A stretch of 64,000 bases of DNA from Eledone cirrhosa (taxonomy: Eukaryota): the NCBI GenBank assembly GCA_964016885.1, contig OZ024740.1, positions 349,432,001-349,496,000 on the forward strand. The letters are read 5' to 3'. The translations under genes were made by a program, and so were the position numbers. The notes under the pieces are model-generated. The model was given only the letters and a program-made list of their open reading frames with translations, ran no database searches and was not told the DNA's origin. Positions 602 to 45,268 of this stretch are shown here, piece after piece (position 1 is the first letter of the stretch; each line of letters starts with the position of its first letter).

Positions 602-4850
<4,249 letters not shown>

Positions 4851-4911
4851 TTATGTGGATGGTGGTGGTGATGGTGGTGGCAGTTGATGTGTGTGTTTTT
4901 TTGTTTTTTTT

Positions 4912-6154
4912 CTGATTCTTGCACTGCCCTAGGATTGACTGTCAGTCTCAAGAAAACCGTCGTCATGTACCAACCTGCCCCAGGTCGGCAATACTGTGAA
5001 CCAAATATCTATGTGTATGGTAAACGACTTGGAGTGAGTGGTTGATCAGTTTGTCTACCTGGGAAGCACTGTCAATCGATACAGCAACCTTGATAATGAA
5101 ATCCCACTCAGGATTAGGAAAGCAAGTAATGCTTTCGGAAAGCTAGAAAGGCGACTCTGGGATCGGCGAGACATATGCAAGATGACAAAGGTACAAGGCA
5201 TGTGTGCTCTCTTCTCTTCTTTATGCCTGCGAGACCTGGGTCACATATCGACACCACCTTAAGCAATTGGAGCGTTTCCATCAGATGTGTCTCAGACGGA
5301 TCCATGGCGTTCACGGGAGGGACCACATCAGTGATGTCGAGATTTTGGAAAGCTTTCTGTGTGACAGTATAGAAGCTCTTGTGCTTAAGCAAAGACTCCG
5401 TTGGAGTGGTCACCTTGCCAGGATGAAGGATTCTAGAATACCAAAACAACTCTTTTATGGAGAGTTAGTTAAAGGAAAACGACCTCCAAATATTGCTGCT
5501 GATCGTAATAAATGGAGAAAGACTGTATATGAGGGAAAAGTTGCCTTTGAGGCATCTCGAATCGCATACGAGAAAGTAAAGCGGGATGTGAAGAAGGGCA
5601 TTGCTGTTGCACTTCCAGGCGGCGAAGGTCCTCCTATGGTGCTGACATGCAGCGTATGTGCGAGACTCTGCCTAAGCAAAGCTGGACTCGAAAGTCATCT
5701 TCGCAGTCATAAAGTAAGACCAGTGGTTGACTACCAGGCTGCTGTTGCTACTCATCATGCTTGCCAAGCACGTGATAGAGAATGTAAATCAGCAGGAGGG
5801 CTCAAACGACATGCAAAAGTACATGAACTCCAACCACAGCCGGTTATTCCCAGTGAATGTTTTATTTGCCAAGTCTGTGCAAAACATTTTAGATCATTGG
5901 TTGGGCTGAAAAGCCACATTCGATCGCAGCGCTGTTAGTTGCTATCGTGTGTGTGTGTGTGTGTGTGTGAGTGTGTGTGTGTGAGGGGGGGATGCATGTG
6001 TGTGTGTATGTGTGTGTGTGTGTGTGTGTGTATTATTATTGTTGTTGTCGCTATTATTATTGTTGTTGTTATTATTATTATTATTATTATTATGTTTTGG
6101 GGGTTTTTTTCTCGTGCAATGGCCATACTCGATAACGAAGGGGCAGCCATCATG

Positions 6155-16902: not shown

Positions 16903-17491
16903 ATGGTGGCTGCCAACTCGTTTTCGAGTACGGCCACTACTTCATATCCATGTAGGGGTACCCCTACCGATGCGCTGAACGAGTGTGACTTTTTAGTCCA
17001 GCCAGCAACTTGAAAACTCTGTTACAAACACTACACTTGTGACAATTATTGACACAGTGCTGGGCCCATGGTACCATGTGACGACAAGTGCAGAGAGATC
17101 TCCAGATATAAAGCAATGCCTGTGCCGTGAAGCTTTTATAGTGAGCAAAGGCACTGCACAAAGCCAGTCCCACTCTCTTAACCAAGATGATATTTACCAA
17201 AAAGAAGAACAAGTCAACATCATTGGATACCATCAGGGTTGCAAGTATTATATCAGAGTTTTCCTTCTCCTAGAATTCTGCCTTGACAAAGGCTAAGGGG
17301 TCATCTCTCCCGGTGATTTTGGATGGGCATTGACTCTTAAGAGCTCCTTTGCCCTTTGACAGGTTTTGTTTTTAGTCCTGCAGGATGTCCAAAGTCACCC
17401 TCCTCACCAAGAAACCTTGGTGGGGTCGCCAATTTAGTCGCCAACGACCCGACCATGAGACAGGTTGTACTGGTGCTACTGGTAACATGTA
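16903..17491 (-). mobile_element. Bipartite RTE-derived non-autonomous element with a short 5' inversion
   Basis: Near-identical to the next two units; 17474-17491 is an inverted piece of the 5' end. Confidence 0.88.
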
Positions 17492-17882
17492 TATACATAC
17501 ATACATATATACACACATACATACATACATACATACATACATACATACATACATACATACATACATACACACATACATACACACATATATACATATATAT
17601 ACATACATACACATACACATACATACATACATATACATATACACATATATACACAGATACACACACATATATATATACACATACACACATACATATACAT
17701 ACATATATATATATATACATATATATACATATACATATATATACACACATACATATATATACATATATACATATATATATATACACACATACACACATAC
17801 ATATATACATATATACATATACATACACATACATATACACATATATACACATACATACATACACATATACATACATATATAT

Positions 17883-18492
17883 ATGGTGGCTGCCAACTCG
17901 TTTTCGAGTACGGCCACTACTTTATATCCATGTAGGAGAACCCCTACTGATGCGCTGAACGAGTGTGACATTTTAGTCCAGCCAGCGACTTGAAAACTCT
18001 GGTACAAACACTACACTTGTGACAATTACTGACACATAGTGCTGGGCCCATTGTACCCTGTGACGACAAGTGTAGAGAGATCTCCAGATATAAAGCAATG
18101 CCTGTGCCGTGAAGCTTTTATAGTGAGCAAAGGCACTGCACAAAGCCAGTCCCACTCTCTTAACCAAGATGATATTTACCAAAAAGAAGAACAAATCAAC
18201 ATCATTGGATACCATCAGGGTTGCAGGTGTTATATCAAAGTTTTCCTTCTCCTAGAATTCTGCCTTGACAAAGGCTAAGGGGTCATCTCTCCCGGTGATT
18301 TTGGATGGGCATTGACTCTTAAGAGCTCCTTTTCCCTTTGACAGGTTTTGTTTTTAGTCCTGCAGGACGTCCAAAGTCACCCTCTTCACCAAGAAACCTT
18401 GGTGGGGTTGCCAGTTTAGTCGCCAACGACCCGACCATGAGACAGGTTGTACTGGGATACATGTTACCAGTAGCACCAACTGGTGACCTGAC
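17883..18492 (-). mobile_element. Full-length (~610 nt) bipartite RTE-derived non-autonomous element
   Basis: Contains an RTE-like 5' leader, a remnant of the last zinc finger, the 3' hairpin and a (TATG)n tail. Confidence 0.9.
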
Positions 18493-18564
18493 ATACATAC
18501 ATACATACATACATACATACATACATACATACATACATACATACATACATACATACATACATAC

Positions 18565-19169
18565 ATGGTGGCTGCCAACTCGTTTTCGAGTACGGCCACT
18601 ACTTTATATCCATGTAGGAGAACCCCTACCGATGCGCTGAACGAGTGTGACTTTTTAGTCCAGCCAGCGACTTGAAAACTCTGGCACAAACACTACACTT
18701 GTGACAATTATTGACACATAGTGTACATGGTACCATGTGACGACAAGTGCAGAGAGATCTCCAGATACAAAGCAATGCCTGTGCCGTGAAGCTTTTATAG
18801 TGAGCAAAGGCACTGCACAAAGCCAGTCCCACTCTCTTAACCAAGATGATATTTACCAAAAAGAAGAACAAGTCAACATCATTGGATACCATCAGGGTTG
18901 CAAGTGTTATATCAGAGTTTTCCTTCTCCTAGAATTCTGCCTTGACAAAGGCTAAGGGGTCATCTCTCCCGGTGATTTTGGATGGCCATTGACTCTTAAG
19001 AGCTCCTTTGCCCTTTGACAGGTTTTGTTTTTAGTCCTGTAGGATGTCCAAAGTCACCCTCCTCACCAAGAAACCTTGGTGGGATTGCCAGTTTAGTCGT
19101 CAATGACCCGACCATGAGACAGGTTGTACTGGGATACATGTTACCAGTAGCACCAACTGGTGACCTGAC
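18565..19169 (-). mobile_element. Full-length (~605 nt) bipartite RTE-derived non-autonomous element
   Basis: Same organisation. Encodes [26 protein letters not shown], compared with the LINE's CRLCARHFRSLAGLKSHIRSQHC*. Its 5' end abuts the (TATG)n tail of the intact LINE. Confidence 0.9.
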
Positions 19170-19287
19170 ATACATACATACATACATATATACATACATA
19201 CATGATGGCTGCCCCCTCGTTATCGAGTATGGCCATTGCACAATAAAAAATAAAAAAAAAAAAATAAAAAATAAAAATAAATAAAAA

Positions 19288-19356
<69 letters not shown>

Positions 19357-19362
19357 AATAAA

Positions 19363-19394
<32 letters not shown>

Positions 19395-19399
19395 AAAAG

Positions 19400-19432
<33 letters not shown>

Positions 19433-19554
19433 TATACATATATATATACATACACGTATATATACACACACACATACATACACATACATACATATATACA
19501 CACACACATACATACACATACACTCACACATATATACACACATACATTAATAAC

Positions 19555-19603
<49 letters not shown>

Positions 19604-22600
19604 GCAATAATAATAATAACGACAACAACAATAATAATATACATATTCATATATATATACACACACACGCACGCACATAAGCATATCTACACACACACAC
19701 ACACACACAAACACACGATAGCAACTAACAGTGCTGCGATCGAATGTGGCTTTTTAGCCCAGCCAATGATCTAAAATGTCTTGCACAGAGTCGGCAACCA
19801 AAACATTTACTGGGAATAGTCGGCTGTGGTTGGAGTTCGTGTACTTTTGCATGTCGCTTGAGTCCTCCTGCTGATTTACATTCTCTACCACATGTTTGGC
19901 AAGCATGATGAGTAGCATCTCCAACAGCAGCCTGGTAGTCAACCACTGGTCTTACTTTATGACTGCGAAGATGACTTTCGAGTCCAGCTTTGCTTAGGCA
20001 GAGTCTCGCACAGACGCTGCATGTCAGAAACATAGGAGGACCCTCGCCGTCTGGAAGTGCAACAGCAATACCCTTCCTCACGTCCCGCTTTACTTTCTCG
20101 TGTGCGATTCGAGATGCCTCAAAGGCAACTTTTCCCTCATATACAGTCTTTCTCCATTTATTACGATCAGCAGCAATATTTTCCCATGTATCAGCAGAGA
20201 TGTTAGCGTCTTTCAGAGAGGCCTTCAAGGAATCCTTATACCTCTTTTTTGGTTTATGTGGCGGTCGTTTTCCTTTAACCAACTCTCCATAGAAGAGTTG
20301 TTTTGGTATTCTAGAATCCTTCATCCTGGCAAGGTGACCACTCCAACGGAGTCGCTGCTTAAGCACAAGAGCTTCTATACTGTCACACATAGAGCTTTCC
20401 AAAATCTCGACATCACTGATGTGGTCCCTCCAGTGAACGCCATGTATCCGTCTGAGACACATCTGATGGAAACGCTCCAATTGCTTAAGGTGGCGTCGAT
20501 ATGTGACCCAGGTCTCGCAGGCATAAAGAAGACAAGAGAGTACACATGCCCTGTACACCTTTACCTTTGTCCTCCTGCATATGTCTCGCCGACCCCAGAG
20601 TCGCCTTTCTAGCTTTCCGAAAGCATCACTTGCTTTCCTAATCCTAAGTGAGATTTCACTGTCAAGGTTGCCGTATCGATTGACAGTGCTTCCCAGGTAG
20701 ACAAACTGATCAACCACTCCAAGTCGTTTGCCATACACATAGATGTTTGGTTCAGTGTACTGCCCACCAGGTGCAGGTTGGTACATGACGACGGTTTTCT
20801 TGAGACTGACAGTCAAACCCAGGGCAGTGCAAGCGTCAGAAAATACATTCAAAATGTGCTGCATATCACTCTCTGTGTGCGCTACAAGATCGCAATCATC
20901 TGCATACAAGAGGTCTCTTATGACTGATGTAAATACTTTTGTCTTCGCAGCAAAGCGCCTGATGTTAAATATGCTGCCTGAGGTTCGATATCGGATGTAA
21001 ACACCATGCTCGCAATTCCTGAATGCAATACAGAAAACCATTGCAAAGTATATGGCAAACAGGGTCGGTGCTGGAATATCCCCCTGCTTCACTCCATTTT
21101 TTACTGAGATAGGCTCCGACATGTTACCTCCGACATTAACCCAAGCCTTCATGTCGTCATGGAAAGACCTAACTAAAGCAAGGAACTTATCAGGGCAACC
21201 AAGTTTCTGGAGAACCTTCCATAATGCATCTCTGTTGACAGTATCGAAAGCCTTTGTCAGATCGACAAAAACCTGATACAGATCCAAGCCCTGTTCAATG
21301 CACTTCTCCTGGAGCTGTCTAGCTGAGAAGATCATATCAGTAGTGCCGCGTCCAACACGAAAACCAGATTGACTTTCAGGAAGGACACAATCTGCAATGT
21401 GTGTCAGCAGACGGTCCAGAAGCACCCTACATAAAACTTTCCCCACGACAGAAAGCAATGATATACCTCTGTAGTTCCCACAATCATTCCTGTTACCCTT
21501 TCCCTTGTACAAGACCACCATTACTGCATCTCTCCAGTCCTCAGGCACGGATTCATTAGCCCATATCCTTCCAAACAGAGAGTGAAGATGTTGCAGGAGT
21601 CTCTCACCACCATATTGTAGGAGCTCAGCATGTATGCCATCCATACCTGGAGATCTTCCACTGTTCAGCTTCGAAATAGCCACTGCAACCTCCACAAGTG
21701 TCAGAGGTTCTGCGAGAGCTACTTTCACAGGACTTTCCGGAATGAGATTGAGGAAATCTTCACTGACGACAGACGGCTGATTCAAAAGATCATCAAAGTG
21801 CTCTCGCCACCTTCGTAGAATTCCCTGTGAGTCACGAAGAAGTTCTTTGCCATCCTTGCTGCGAATCGGTGTCACCAGAGAAGAAGACGGTCCATAAACC
21901 TCACGCAAGAGACTGTACAACAGCTTTGTGTTATTGCAATCAGACGCAGTTTGTATCTCACCAGCCTTCTCACTCCACCACTGATCCTTCATCTGAGAAA
22001 GACTCCGCCTAACACGTGATTTTACATCCCTGAGCTCCTCATGCAACGTATTCCTCTCCTGTGGTTTTGCCGTCAAGTAGCGTGACAGAGCGCGCCTCTT
22101 ATCAGCCAACAAGTCATCTATATGCACATCTTTCTCATTAAACCAGTCCTGATGTTTTCTCTGCACCAATCCCAGAACACGTCTGCCTACATCATAAACC
22201 GACTTTTTAAGGGTCGGCCAATCCTCACCAAGATCTGCAGCCTGCATCTCTTCTTCCAATGTCCTCTTCACATTTTTATCCTTAAGACGAGCAGCATTCA
22301 ATCTTTTGGGCAGGGTAACACCAGGAGCCCGGATTTTACGTTTGGTGATTAGATTCACTTTTGCGCGTACCAGGCGGTGGTCCGTCAAGCACTCAGCTCC
22401 ACGAAGAACACGAACACACTGCACATCCTGTCTGTCACGCATCCTGACTAGGACGTAGTCCAAAAGATGCCATTCCTTAGATGCAGGATGCATCCATGTG
22501 GTCTTGAATTTGTTCTTTTGTTGGAACATGGTGTTGGTAACACACAGATCCAGCTCCTCACACATCTGCAGCAAGAGCATACCATTGCTGTTACACTTTC

Positions 22601-23278
22601 CCACCCCATGCCTTCCGATTACATTCCATGTGTTAAAATCCCTACCCACTCTAGCATTAAAGTCACCAAGCACGATGACTTTGTCTGCCTGAGGGATATT
22701 TCTTAAAACACCTTTCAAGGCATGGTAAAAGGACAGTTTTTCTTCATCGACAGAATTCATAGTTGGAGCATACACACTCACCAGGGTAGCATATCTTCCC
22801 TTGTCCAGCGGAACTCTCATGGACATAAGACGCTCACTAATCCCCACTGGGAATTCTTCTAATTTATTCACCAGTACAGTCTTAACAGCAAATCCTACCC
22901 CAGCCTCTCTTCTGGTTCCTTCATCTCTTCCTTTCCAGAAGAATGTATATTCTCCACAAAATTCCGTAAGATGACCATCTCCAGCTAACCTCGTCTCAGA
23001 CAAAGCCACGATGTCAAGATCGTAACGTCGAAGCTCCTTCGCAACAAGAGCGGTCCTTCGTTCAGGACGCTCCAAAGAATCCCTGTCAAGCAGCGTCCGT
23101 ACGTTCCAGCAGCCAAGACTAAATGCCCTGTTTGGCTCTATTACAATGGCACGATGACTGGCGGGCCCAGGTTGTGATAACTTGGGGCCCCTGCCCTTAT
23201 TGCCAATGATCTTTTTTGTTCCAGAACCCAAATTGGCAATTATCTCGTTTACATTGTTCTGGAACATCATTGAATTGG

Positions 23279-23310
<32 letters not shown>

Positions 23311-23315
23311 TAATA

Positions 23316-23352
<37 letters not shown>

Positions 23353-23652
23353 ACTATTAATAATTATTAATGCACTCGTGCAATGCCTGTGCGTGACGAA
23401 TATTTTTAAAGTGAGGAAAGACTGTGCACTGAACCAATCCCACTCTCTGAGCGACAGTAGCTATAACCCGAAAAGAAGAAAAGATCAACATCATCGGTAA
23501 CTACTGAGCCGCAGGTTTTATATCGGAGTTAACCCAGTTTCCTGAGATGCCTTCTCCTAGAAGAATACCCTGACATGGGCTAGGGGTTCTTCACTCCCAG
23601 TGGTTTAACTGCGCGATCGGGCATCCAGCCCGATTATTTCTATGTCCCCGCG
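19170..23652 (-). mobile_element. Near-full-length RTE-ZF LINE (copy 3) with 5' UTR, microsatellite-rich 3' UTR, 3' stem-loop and (TATG)n tail
   Basis: 5' UTR 23271-23652 matches 602-877 and 45072-45268. The 3' end GCAATGGCCATACTCGATAACGAGGGGGCAGCCATC-(ATGT)n matches 6116-6222. Confidence 0.92.
19725..23270 (-). CDS. Intact RTE-clade LINE ORF (1181 aa): APE endonuclease, reverse transcriptase, 3 C-terminal C2H2 zinc fingers
   Basis: Uninterrupted ORF from MMFQNN. APE motifs: WNVRTL, LSETR, VYAPT, GDFNA, LDYVL, TDH. RT motifs: NYRGISLLS, QSGFR, FVDLTKAFDTV, GVKQG, LLYADD, YLG. RTE-type RLRWSGHLARM...RIPKQLFYGEL. Fingers: CSVC..HLRSH, CQTC..HAKVH, CRLC..HIRSQH. Confidence 0.95.
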   Translation of the reverse strand: MMFQNNVNEIIANLGSGTKKIIGNKGRGPKLSQPGPASHRAIVIEPNRAFSLGCWNVRTLLDRDSLERPERRTALVAKELRRYDLDIVALSETRLAGDGHLTEFCGEYTFFWKGRDEGTRREAGVGFAVKTVLVNKLEEFPVGISERLMSMRVPLDKGRYATLVSVYAPTMNSVDEEKLSFYHALKGVLRNIPQADKVIVLGDFNARVGRDFNTWNVIGRHGVGKCNSNGMLLLQMCEELDLCVTNTMFQQKNKFKTTWMHPASKEWHLLDYVLVRMRDRQDVQCVRVLRGAECLTDHRLVRAKVNLITKRKIRAPGVTLPKRLNAARLKDKNVKRTLEEEMQAADLGEDWPTLKKSVYDVGRRVLGLVQRKHQDWFNEKDVHIDDLLADKRRALSRYLTAKPQERNTLHEELRDVKSRVRRSLSQMKDQWWSEKAGEIQTASDCNNTKLLYSLLREVYGPSSSLVTPIRSKDGKELLRDSQGILRRWREHFDDLLNQPSVVSEDFLNLIPESPVKVALAEPLTLVEVAVAISKLNSGRSPGMDGIHAELLQYGGERLLQHLHSLFGRIWANESVPEDWRDAVMVVLYKGKGNRNDCGNYRGISLLSVVGKVLCRVLLDRLLTHIADCVLPESQSGFRVGRGTTDMIFSARQLQEKCIEQGLDLYQVFVDLTKAFDTVNRDALWKVLQKLGCPDKFLALVRSFHDDMKAWVNVGGNMSEPISVKNGVKQGDIPAPTLFAIYFAMVFCIAFRNCEHGVYIRYRTSGSIFNIRRFAAKTKVFTSVIRDLLYADDCDLVAHTESDMQHILNVFSDACTALGLTVSLKKTVVMYQPAPGGQYTEPNIYVYGKRLGVVDQFVYLGSTVNRYGNLDSEISLRIRKASDAFGKLERRLWGRRDICRRTKVKVYRACVLSCLLYACETWVTYRRHLKQLERFHQMCLRRIHGVHWRDHISDVEILESSMCDSIEALVLKQRLRWSGHLARMKDSRIPKQLFYGELVKGKRPPHKPKKRYKDSLKASLKDANISADTWENIAADRNKWRKTVYEGKVAFEASRIAHEKVKRDVRKGIAVALPDGEGPPMFLTCSVCARLCLSKAGLESHLRSHKVRPVVDYQAAVGDATHHACQTCGRECKSAGGLKRHAKVHELQPQPTIPSKCFGCRLCARHFRSLAGLKSHIRSQHC

Positions 23653-23918
23653 CAAAAAAAAAAAAAAAAAAAAATTACTTATTGACACTTATACGTACGA
23701 CATACACACACACGCATACATATGCGTGCACACAGCAACACTCACACACACAACAAACACACACACACGCTACTCTACTCACTTACACGCACACACACAC
23801 ATATATATATATATATTACCGTCATTACTGATACAAGATTACCAGATTATGTCAACTGTTGACTTTCAAGAGTTTGTATAGTTGAAGCCGATCGTATTAC
23901 AGTCCAGTATTACATGTA

Positions 23919-38345: not shown

Positions 38346-38705
38346 GTGTATGGGTATATGTGTTTATATTCGGTCTGTTGAAATGCTGAATGCCAAACCA
38401 ATTGAGCATGTCAAGGACCTCCTTCGGCTTTGATGACGAGTGTCTCTGCATTTCGAACAGAACAACCTACTCGGAAATTAACATGCAAGTGTCTGAGCAT
38501 TTCATTGATACGTGTAACTTTAACGTAGTTCTTGAGAAGATTCAGCGTGACTGAAATGCACCCATTGATTTAGACGTATTTTCGTCTTTAACCCGCAGAT
38601 AGTTCGGAGTTAAATCAAACTGTTAATATACTCAACTTCGACATTATGTGTTTGTTCTCTTTTTCTGTTTGTACCCACAAGCATATATATGTGTGTGAGC
38701 ACCTG

Positions 38706-38807
38706 TGGGATTGACTCAGTGCACAGTCTTTCCTCACTTTAAAAAATATCTTCACGCACAGGCATTACACGATCGTGCAATGGCCATACTCGACAACGAG
38801 GGGGCAA

Positions 38808-38813
<6 letters not shown>
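38706..38813 (+). mobile_element. Mini RTE-ZF derivative: LINE 5' UTR fused directly to the 3' hairpin
   Basis: 38706-38772 matches LINE 702-768. 38773-38813 matches the LINE 3' end at 6112-6152. Confidence 0.85.
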
Positions 38814-38871
<58 letters not shown>

Positions 38872-44784: not shown

Positions 44785-45268
44785 GTCGGGTCACTCTTGA
44801 GTGCTACTGGTAAAATGCGACCCAGTTCAAACTGTCGCATGGTCGGGTCATTGGCGACTAAGCCGGCAACCCCACCAAGATTACTTGGTGAGGAGGGTGA
44901 TTTTGGACACCCTGCAGAACAAAAAACAAAACCTGATAAAGGGCGGAAGAACTCATAAGAGTCAACGGCCAACCAAAAGTGTGTAAATATGTATATACAC
45001 ATGTACATATATACATATACATACATGTATATGTATATGTGTATATATCTGGGTGGGTGTGTATGTATATACGCGGGGACATAGAAAAGGTCGGGATGGA
45101 CACCCGATCGCGCGGTTAACCCACTGGGAGTGAAGGACCCTAGCCTTTGTCAGGGCATTCTTCTAGGAGAAGGCATCTCAGGAAACTGGGATAACTCCGA
45201 TATAAAACCTGCGGCTCAGTAGTTACCGATGATGTTGATCTTTTCTTCTTTTCGTGTTATAGTTACTG
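44785..45268 (+). mobile_element. Isolated 5' leader of the RTE-ZF LINE, including the extreme 5' structured region
   Basis: 44785-44978 is homologous to the 5' end of the bipartite units. 45072-45268 matches the LINE UTR at 23652-23456. A microsatellite lies between them. Confidence 0.85.

Follow-up and report, generated by a model that had tools for sequence, protein, structure and literature searches.

Most LINEs are thought to recognise the 3′ tail only. Bipartite non-autonomous derivatives of RTE elements are known, among them Bov-A, RTESINE, WALLSI, MonoRep87 and SINE2_Gav, and few LINE groups form derivatives that carry both ends, 'for unknown reasons' (Kojima 2018, PMC5786205); some SINEs retain the 5′ part alone after tail exchange (same source). 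RTE LINEs and Au-like SINEs share a terminal hairpin before the microsatellite tail, which has been proposed as a signal for reverse transcription (Nishiyama and Ohshima 2018, PMC6007223), and engineered RTE-1_MD templates carry both cognate UTRs, optimised by screening (PMC13708176). These statements, and all comparisons with published work below, refer to the excerpts of the cited papers that were available. In full-text literature searches, a scope that excludes key older papers and patents, no listed paper announces 5′–3′ pairing in RTE RNA in its title or the opening of its abstract, and such pairing is not stated in the available parts of PMC5786205, PMC6007223, PMC13708176, PMC9115989, PMC3747384 or bioRxiv 10.1101/2022.11.04.512097. 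The bipartite RTE derivatives are already known, and what stands out here is a covarying helix that joins the two ends of the element.

The window is the whole stretch of 64,000 nucleotides of Eledone cirrhosa DNA that was analysed. It holds autonomous-type LINE copies and two families of short bipartite elements, designated F1 and F2, with the following features:

602–4856, plus strand: autonomous-type LINE copy, 5′-truncated, its ORF broken by stops and frameshifts
759–769 and 4815–4825, plus strand: arms of this copy, an exact 11-bp match
4908–6153, plus strand: 5′-truncated LINE copy with its 3′ arm at 6111–6121 and a terminal hairpin at about 6128–6139
19204–23720, minus strand: full LINE with a single open frame at 19725–23363 (APE endonuclease, RT, C2H2 fingers)
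23375–23385 (5′ arm) and 19234–19244 (3′ arm), minus strand: arms of the full LINE, G.U variant
either side of the ORF of the full LINE, minus strand: (TTA)n/(T)n runs
16904–19165, minus strand: F2, the second bipartite family, three tandem copies with arms that differ from those of F1
17104–17118 and 16935–16949, minus strand: arms of the last F2 copy, forming a helix of 15–16 bp that includes G.U pairs and closes a loop of about 154 nt
38705–38812, plus strand: F1-SINE copy (the mini-copy), bipartite non-autonomous RTE-type, 5′-truncated, 33-nt loop absent
38763–38782, plus strand: zero-loop junction of the 5′ arm with the 3′ arm, showing an AT microhomology of 2 nt when set against the usual junction
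38705–38762, plus strand: 5′UTR module of the mini-copy with a predicted hairpin and a candidate pseudoknot, ending at the AGG junction
38783–38847, plus strand: 3′ terminal hairpin, GCAACCATC end and (AT)n tail

The intact LINE of the window consists of one frame of 1,212 codons (19725–23363, minus strand; PF03372 and PF00078), in which an N-terminal APE endonuclease is followed by an RT and no ORF1 is present, and the 3′ tails of the window LINEs are short tandem repeats, (ATC), (ATGT)n or (AT)n, rather than poly(A). Both traits are those of the RTE clade, and the assignment is one of ORF layout and tail, with a likeness of the UTRs to named RTEs that was judged by eye and an RT tree that holds unnamed relatives only. 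Compared by description, RTE-2_OV (Petrosino 2022, PMC9115989) resembles the window LINE in that one ORF encodes endonuclease, RT and C2H2 finger and in its microsatellite-rich 3′UTR, with an ORF of 1,109 aa versus about 1,180 in the window LINE. Upstream of the first ATG, at 23280–23363 (minus strand), the (TTA)n/(T)n run is free of stops in the frame of the ORF and would read as poly-Tyr followed by poly-Phe; it is probably untranslated.

The F1-SINE is like the derivatives described by Kojima in combining a 5′UTR piece with the extreme 3′ end and a microsatellite tail, and its 5′ module (GAGAGTG..CTCACT..AA..CGCA) matches those of RTE-1_PSi, RTE-3_AMi, RTE-3_PM and RTE-14_Lch by eye (PMC5786205). 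Complementary arms can also be picked out by eye at the same place in RTE-1_PSi, RTE-3_AMi and RTE-11_AMi (supplement of PMC5786205), and in WALLSI1, MonoRep87A/B, SINE2_Gav, SINE-1_Pmo and BOVA2, with loops of about 2–21 nt (PMC5786205); SINE-1_Pmo and BOVA2 carry a different 5′ module, which suggests that pairing extends beyond the subgroup of elements analysed in this work. The terminal hairpin of PMC6007223 is local to the 3′ end, whereas the elements described here have, directly before that hairpin, an additional long-range helix with the 5′UTR.

The preliminary description of this DNA had reported an exact 11-bp complementarity between 5′UTR and 3′ end. Its motif CATTGCACGAG is indeed present exactly at 759–769 (plus) and 23375–23385 (minus), with the exact reverse complement at 4815–4825 and 6111–6121. 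The exactness holds for the older copies; the intact minus-strand copy reads TGTGCAATG at its 3′ end, a change that turns a G-C pair into G.U, so that within a single element of the window an exact 11-bp match occurs only in the broken plus-strand copy (759–769 with 4815–4825). Among 19 young genomic copies examined, TGTGCAATG was present in all 18 in which the 3′ end was found. The youngest LINE copies thus retain the pairing via G.U.

The window protein was aligned with 42 of the 120 homologues listed, and this alignment retrieved 80 metagenome loci, of which 30 span most of the ORF and 18 were kept. The 12 loci dropped from the 30 lacked the 5′ module (L066, L073, L074, L087, L091), duplicated another locus (L072, of L071), ended without the 3′ end (L093, L115, L129) or were full-length with no recognisable module or end (L090, L123, L125). 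Together with F2 and the window LINE, the latter represented by the 5′ flank of one copy and the 3′ end of its neighbour, the 18 loci make up 20 elements with RT identities of 48–80% (median 53%). In windows of 30 and 25 nt placed by conserved motifs, the arms of the same element pair at −17.9 kcal/mol versus −10.6 (sd 3.6) for mismatched arms, a difference reached in 0 of 200,000 permutations; the anchors were picked after the sequences had been seen, so this test is not blind. Under this first anchor rule, which mis-anchored L092 and L105 (both kept), the own partner ranked first in 11 of 20 rows and 13 of 20 columns, and shuffles gave p ≤ 0.03 in 16 of 20 elements; pairing was weak in L063 and L069. 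A second anchor rule, which mis-anchored L080, L085 and L107 (all kept), gave −18.2 for own and −9.3 for mismatched arms, again with 0 of 200,000 permutations, and helices of at least 8 bp for 13 of the 20 own combinations, as against 8.4% of the mismatched ones. The mean identity between arms of different elements is 27%. Examples of own arms that pair are CATGACTTCA with TGAAGTCATG in L064, CTCCGGTC with GACCGGAG in L067 and CGTCAGTG with CACTGACG in L077.

It is important to point out that the significance of the arm pairing comes from the fixed position and the covariation across relatives, and not from energy alone. When the 3′ arm was scanned by energy against whole 5′ flanks of 700 nt, shuffles gave p ≤ 0.05 in only 1 of 20 elements; with the whole flank of up to 700 nt left free, 10 of the 20 elements have their best duplex beginning no more than 3 nt from an anchor, with 1–7 candidate anchors per 5′ flank. 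Folding of full-length sequences recovered the helix in one of two cases (L089, not L064). Within the window LINE family, 3′ ends were obtained for 10 of 20 older loci, and at the 11th pair seven of ten older copies with a 5′ T keep the 3′ C and none has an A; with no A opposite the T, there is no compensation within this family. As far as sequence comparison can tell, end-to-end complementarity in RTE-type elements is genuine and general. The preliminary description had made its idea depend on conservation in relatives, and the complementarity is indeed kept despite unrelated arm sequences in distant RTE-type elements; the panhandle is therefore well supported as a selected feature. The 5′ flanks of L063–L115 also show that most of these elements have about 350 nt of extra conserved 5′UTR between the arm and the ORF, which the window LINE lacks.

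Upstream of the 5′ arm lies a module in which covariation is likewise observed. Over 17 aligned 5′ modules, its hairpin is paired in 95% of cells with changes on both sides in 4 of 8 pairs, and the helix of a candidate pseudoknot, for which there are two possible registers, is paired in 67% with changes on both sides in 5 of 6 pairs. Overall, 83% of cells are paired and 9 of 14 pairs have changed on both sides, a score that none of 500 shuffles reached and that slid registers fell below, in a test biased towards this structure, which had been derived from the very sequences on which it was scored. Both families of the window genome use a shifted pseudoknot register. A free search for the pseudoknot helix was noisy and often returned other helices, with own pairs beating mismatched ones at p = 5e-4. 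In the mini-copy the predicted hairpin is formed by GTGGG with CTCACT at 38733–38738. Rfam gave no hit at gathering score for the 5′ module in 19 loci, only weak hits, and an HDV-like reading of the module was discarded as a misfit by eye. In roughly half of L063–L115, a self-complementary hexamer makes up the loop of the module's hairpin.

The mini-copy at 38705–38812 had been presumed to be the product of a deletion of about 4 kb from the LINE by a reverse transcriptase jumping across the base of the panhandle. The junction is there: at 38763–38782 the two arms are joined without a spacer (CATTACACGA|TCGTGCAATG), with one G>A change in the 5′ arm. Splicing had been considered unlikely, and rightly so, as the skipped 33-nt loop has no GT..AG ends. 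The origin proposed for the copy is not supported. A genome search with the mini-copy gave 768 candidates, of which 40 were scored, and most of the relatives fetched have a longer 5′ side and an AT-rich loop between the arms. They belong to the F1-SINE family, which combines a 5′UTR part with the extreme 3′ part of its partner LINE, has no ORF and behaves as a propagating unit, with 2,441 copies that share a 30–33-nt loop and one master junction. At the one diagnostic site that it covers, the mini-copy carries the SINE allele, as do 40 of 56 bipartite copies (15 being undetermined and 1 LINE-type) in a sample that was partly retrieved by likeness to the query; the same allele occurs in 1 of 53 LINE 5′ ends, the genome having 1,337 candidate ends of this kind. 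The other two zero-loop copies have SINE-type alleles further upstream. Set against the usual junction, the zero-loop one shows 2 nt of microhomology, and no longer match is on offer at which 33 nt could be deleted with both arms preserved. CATATATATGTGTGTG at 38682–38697 is repeated past the (AT)n tail, by eye resembling a target-site duplication around the copy.

On the strength of the diagnostic allele, the loop counts, the 2-nt microhomology and the possible target-site duplication, the copy at 38705–38812 is very likely a SINE copy with a secondary loss of its loop, either during reverse transcription or later in the DNA. A direct 4-kb loop-out was rejected for this copy on the basis of the diagnostic alleles and copy counts, which point to a SINE parent, and of the usual junction, which keeps the 33-nt loop. 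In the genome search that had been suggested for the junction, three zero-loop loci that share one breakpoint were found under a looser pattern, and the exact 27-mer junction occurs once, so that a propagating zero-loop family was rejected. The three loci have no private change in common over the aligned 5′ part. Contigs of four runs show the usual loop at the junction in three, and the zero-loop junction is unbridged among the pieces listed, which is neutral evidence. Folded alone, the mini-copy is not notable (z = −1.2), and an F1-SINE copy with the full loop reaches z = −2.2, with 3 of 200 shuffles as good. The single mini-copy is, in short, ordinary.

No tRNA head was identified in the F1-SINE, and Rfam returned nothing at gathering score for a tRNA, 5S or 7SL head in L004 and L013; the F1-SINE head resembles the 5′ region of F2. 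In the 5′ head of F2 and of the F1-SINE, at 18400–18492 (minus strand) and in L002, L004 and L013, small hairpins are stacked in an arrangement that looks partly like an HDV ribozyme by eye and has no match in Rfam. A genome search for an autonomous partner of F2 came back empty, in a search that skips very common words, and F2 was accordingly tested as a short element only. The three F2 elements at 16904–19165 (minus strand) lie directly behind the microsatellite tail of the LINE, and families of the F1 and F2 type apparently use one another's (ATGT)n tails as insertion sites. The idea that the arms are terminal inverted repeats of a DNA transposon was rejected, since the arms are internal to the element and both are kept.

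The genome-wide spectrum of loop lengths was obtained with patterns that require intact arms and are blind to how rare arm-cutting deletions are. With exact arms, 2,441 copies have a loop of 30–33 nt (of the first 100 listed, 99 have 33 nt) and 186 a loop of 0–29 nt; a slightly looser pattern gave 82 copies with 34–63 nt. Among the first 100 short-loop copies listed, 45 are shorter by 10 nt, consistent with loss at a 9-nt direct repeat, and 2 are loopless. Another, looser pattern, for loops of up to 10 nt, picked out 9 loci in 15 matches: three loci have a loop of 0 nt, one of 4 nt, three of 7 nt and one of 9 nt, and one is an unrelated sequence. At the level of the LINE-to-short-element transition, the F1-SINE breakpoint is some 25 nt beyond the 5′ arm, within a TTA-rich stretch, a sequence that we infer to be common to both LINE UTRs, the parental 3′UTR not having been found. 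The F2 junction keeps a loop of about 154 nt. In L192 (C331:83700-85200) the 5′UTR of a young LINE is joined to the 3′ end within the shared (TTA)n/(T)n and the entire ORF is absent; this is one copy on a small contig, and an assembly error is possible. The breakpoint falls at the stem in none of these three LINE-derived junction types.

The arms with their fixed position and covariation, the covarying hairpin upstream and the loop-length spectrum of the genome are matters of observation, and a split recognition element would connect them. The arms, of 8–16 nt, lie one within the 5′UTR and the other immediately ahead of the 3′ terminal hairpin. In the RNA they are predicted to pair, and their pairing would dock the structured 5′UTR module beside the 3′ hairpin and the microsatellite tail, where target-primed reverse transcription starts. 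The element's own reverse transcriptase would read the composite of 5′ module and 3′ end; only RNAs with both halves would be copied well, and full-length RNA would be favoured. A deletion inside the loop would yield a mobile bipartite element, and a deletion that cuts an arm would be lost; in this genome, loop deletions appear to arise mainly at direct repeats and microhomologies, the loop then being trimmed further. That the helix docks the module, that the protein reads the composite and that non-autonomous derivatives thus keep both ends is, in our estimate, moderately probable, and a need for both ends in recognition would explain why RTE elements have both-ended derivatives. More tentatively, this may be an undescribed mode of RTE recognition in which the covarying long-range helix clamps a pseudoknotted 5′UTR module to the 3′ priming end in a telomerase-like layout that selects full-length RNA. 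The core of telomerase RNA has a pseudoknot near the template and a long-range helix that closes the domain, and the likeness to the arm clamp is one of analogy only. The same is true of the UTR pseudoknots of R2, where, in the sources available in part, pseudoknotted RNA is bound by a non-LTR-type RT near the template in another clade and with another sequence.

Several alternatives compete with a split recognition element, and SINEs that carry the 5′ part alone after tail exchange (PMC5786205) count against it. In the version that follows the preliminary description, the panhandle makes the reverse transcriptase jump at the top of the stem and is thereby the main source of bipartite elements, including the copy at 38705–38812 directly from the LINE. 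Pairing would juxtapose both RNA ends, the three zero-loop loci share one breakpoint, and loops read by eye are short in MonoRep87 (6 nt), WALLSI1 (6 nt), SINE2_Gav (about 5 nt) and SINE-1_Pmo (2 nt) (PMC5786205). Yet the mini-copy is SINE-type at its one diagnostic site and the two other zero-loop copies are so further upstream, the master junctions lie within loops of 33 or about 154 nt or in a shared microsatellite, away from the stem, and a jump leaves the compensatory upkeep of pairing in autonomous elements unexplained; we regard such jumping as an improbable main source. The three zero-loop copies and several published SINEs with 2–6-nt loops would still allow jumps guided by the stem as a lesser route. 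A little less doubtful, though still unlikely, is that pairing serves translation or RNA stability, as a closed loop or as a switch between translation and template, with the bipartite structure as a by-product. The 5′ arm is upstream of the start and the 3′ arm frequently borders on or overlaps the stop codon (as in L064, L075, L077 and L082), but untranslated derivatives retain the helix and have even made it longer (12 bp in the F1-SINE, 15–16 bp in F2), which argues against a role in translation only.

Finally, the arms could act on DNA or cDNA, by fold-back priming of the second strand or completion of the 5′ end, or could recur through fold-back copying without function. A comparison of G.U with A.C changes gave no clear strand (G.U 10, A.C 12, other 14; n = 36), and fold-back palindromes of the 5′UTR with a reverse-complement arm exist at three loci, as an action at the DNA level would allow. 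The helices of F2 and of the young LINE copies, however, depend on G.U pairs and fit the sense strand (for F2, −20.4 on the sense versus −9.0 on the antisense strand), and a fixed register at both ends at a median RT identity of 53% is hard to obtain by chance fold-back. A DNA-level or accidental origin is the least likely of the explanations and appears very improbable.

Should the clamp exist as proposed, it would explain bipartite RTE SINEs across animals and would provide a design rule for the templates of RTE gene writers; the pairing bears on the RTE-1_MD templates used for gene insertion. The covarying 5′–3′ helix makes the question of bipartite origin testable by break-and-rescue mutation.

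Pieces of the LINE 5′UTR also occur in other arrangements. At L183/L184 (C1:289357930-289357979) the 5′UTR forms a fold-back palindrome centred on an AT-rich palindrome just past the 5′ arm; further loci are C2:47306115-47306164 and C2:47310719-47310768, of which the C1 locus was the one read. Such fold-back palindromes yield a reverse-complement arm. Within the window, a lone 5′UTR fragment of LINE or SINE origin at 45072–45268 (plus strand) is 92% identical and stops before the module. In L162–L212, other recurring insertions often split the (TTA)n run of the LINE 5′UTR, as if it were the target site of another element, and L186–L191 (C1:296.78-296.84 Mb) form a tandem cluster of near-identical old LINE 5′UTR pieces fused to one unrelated sequence.
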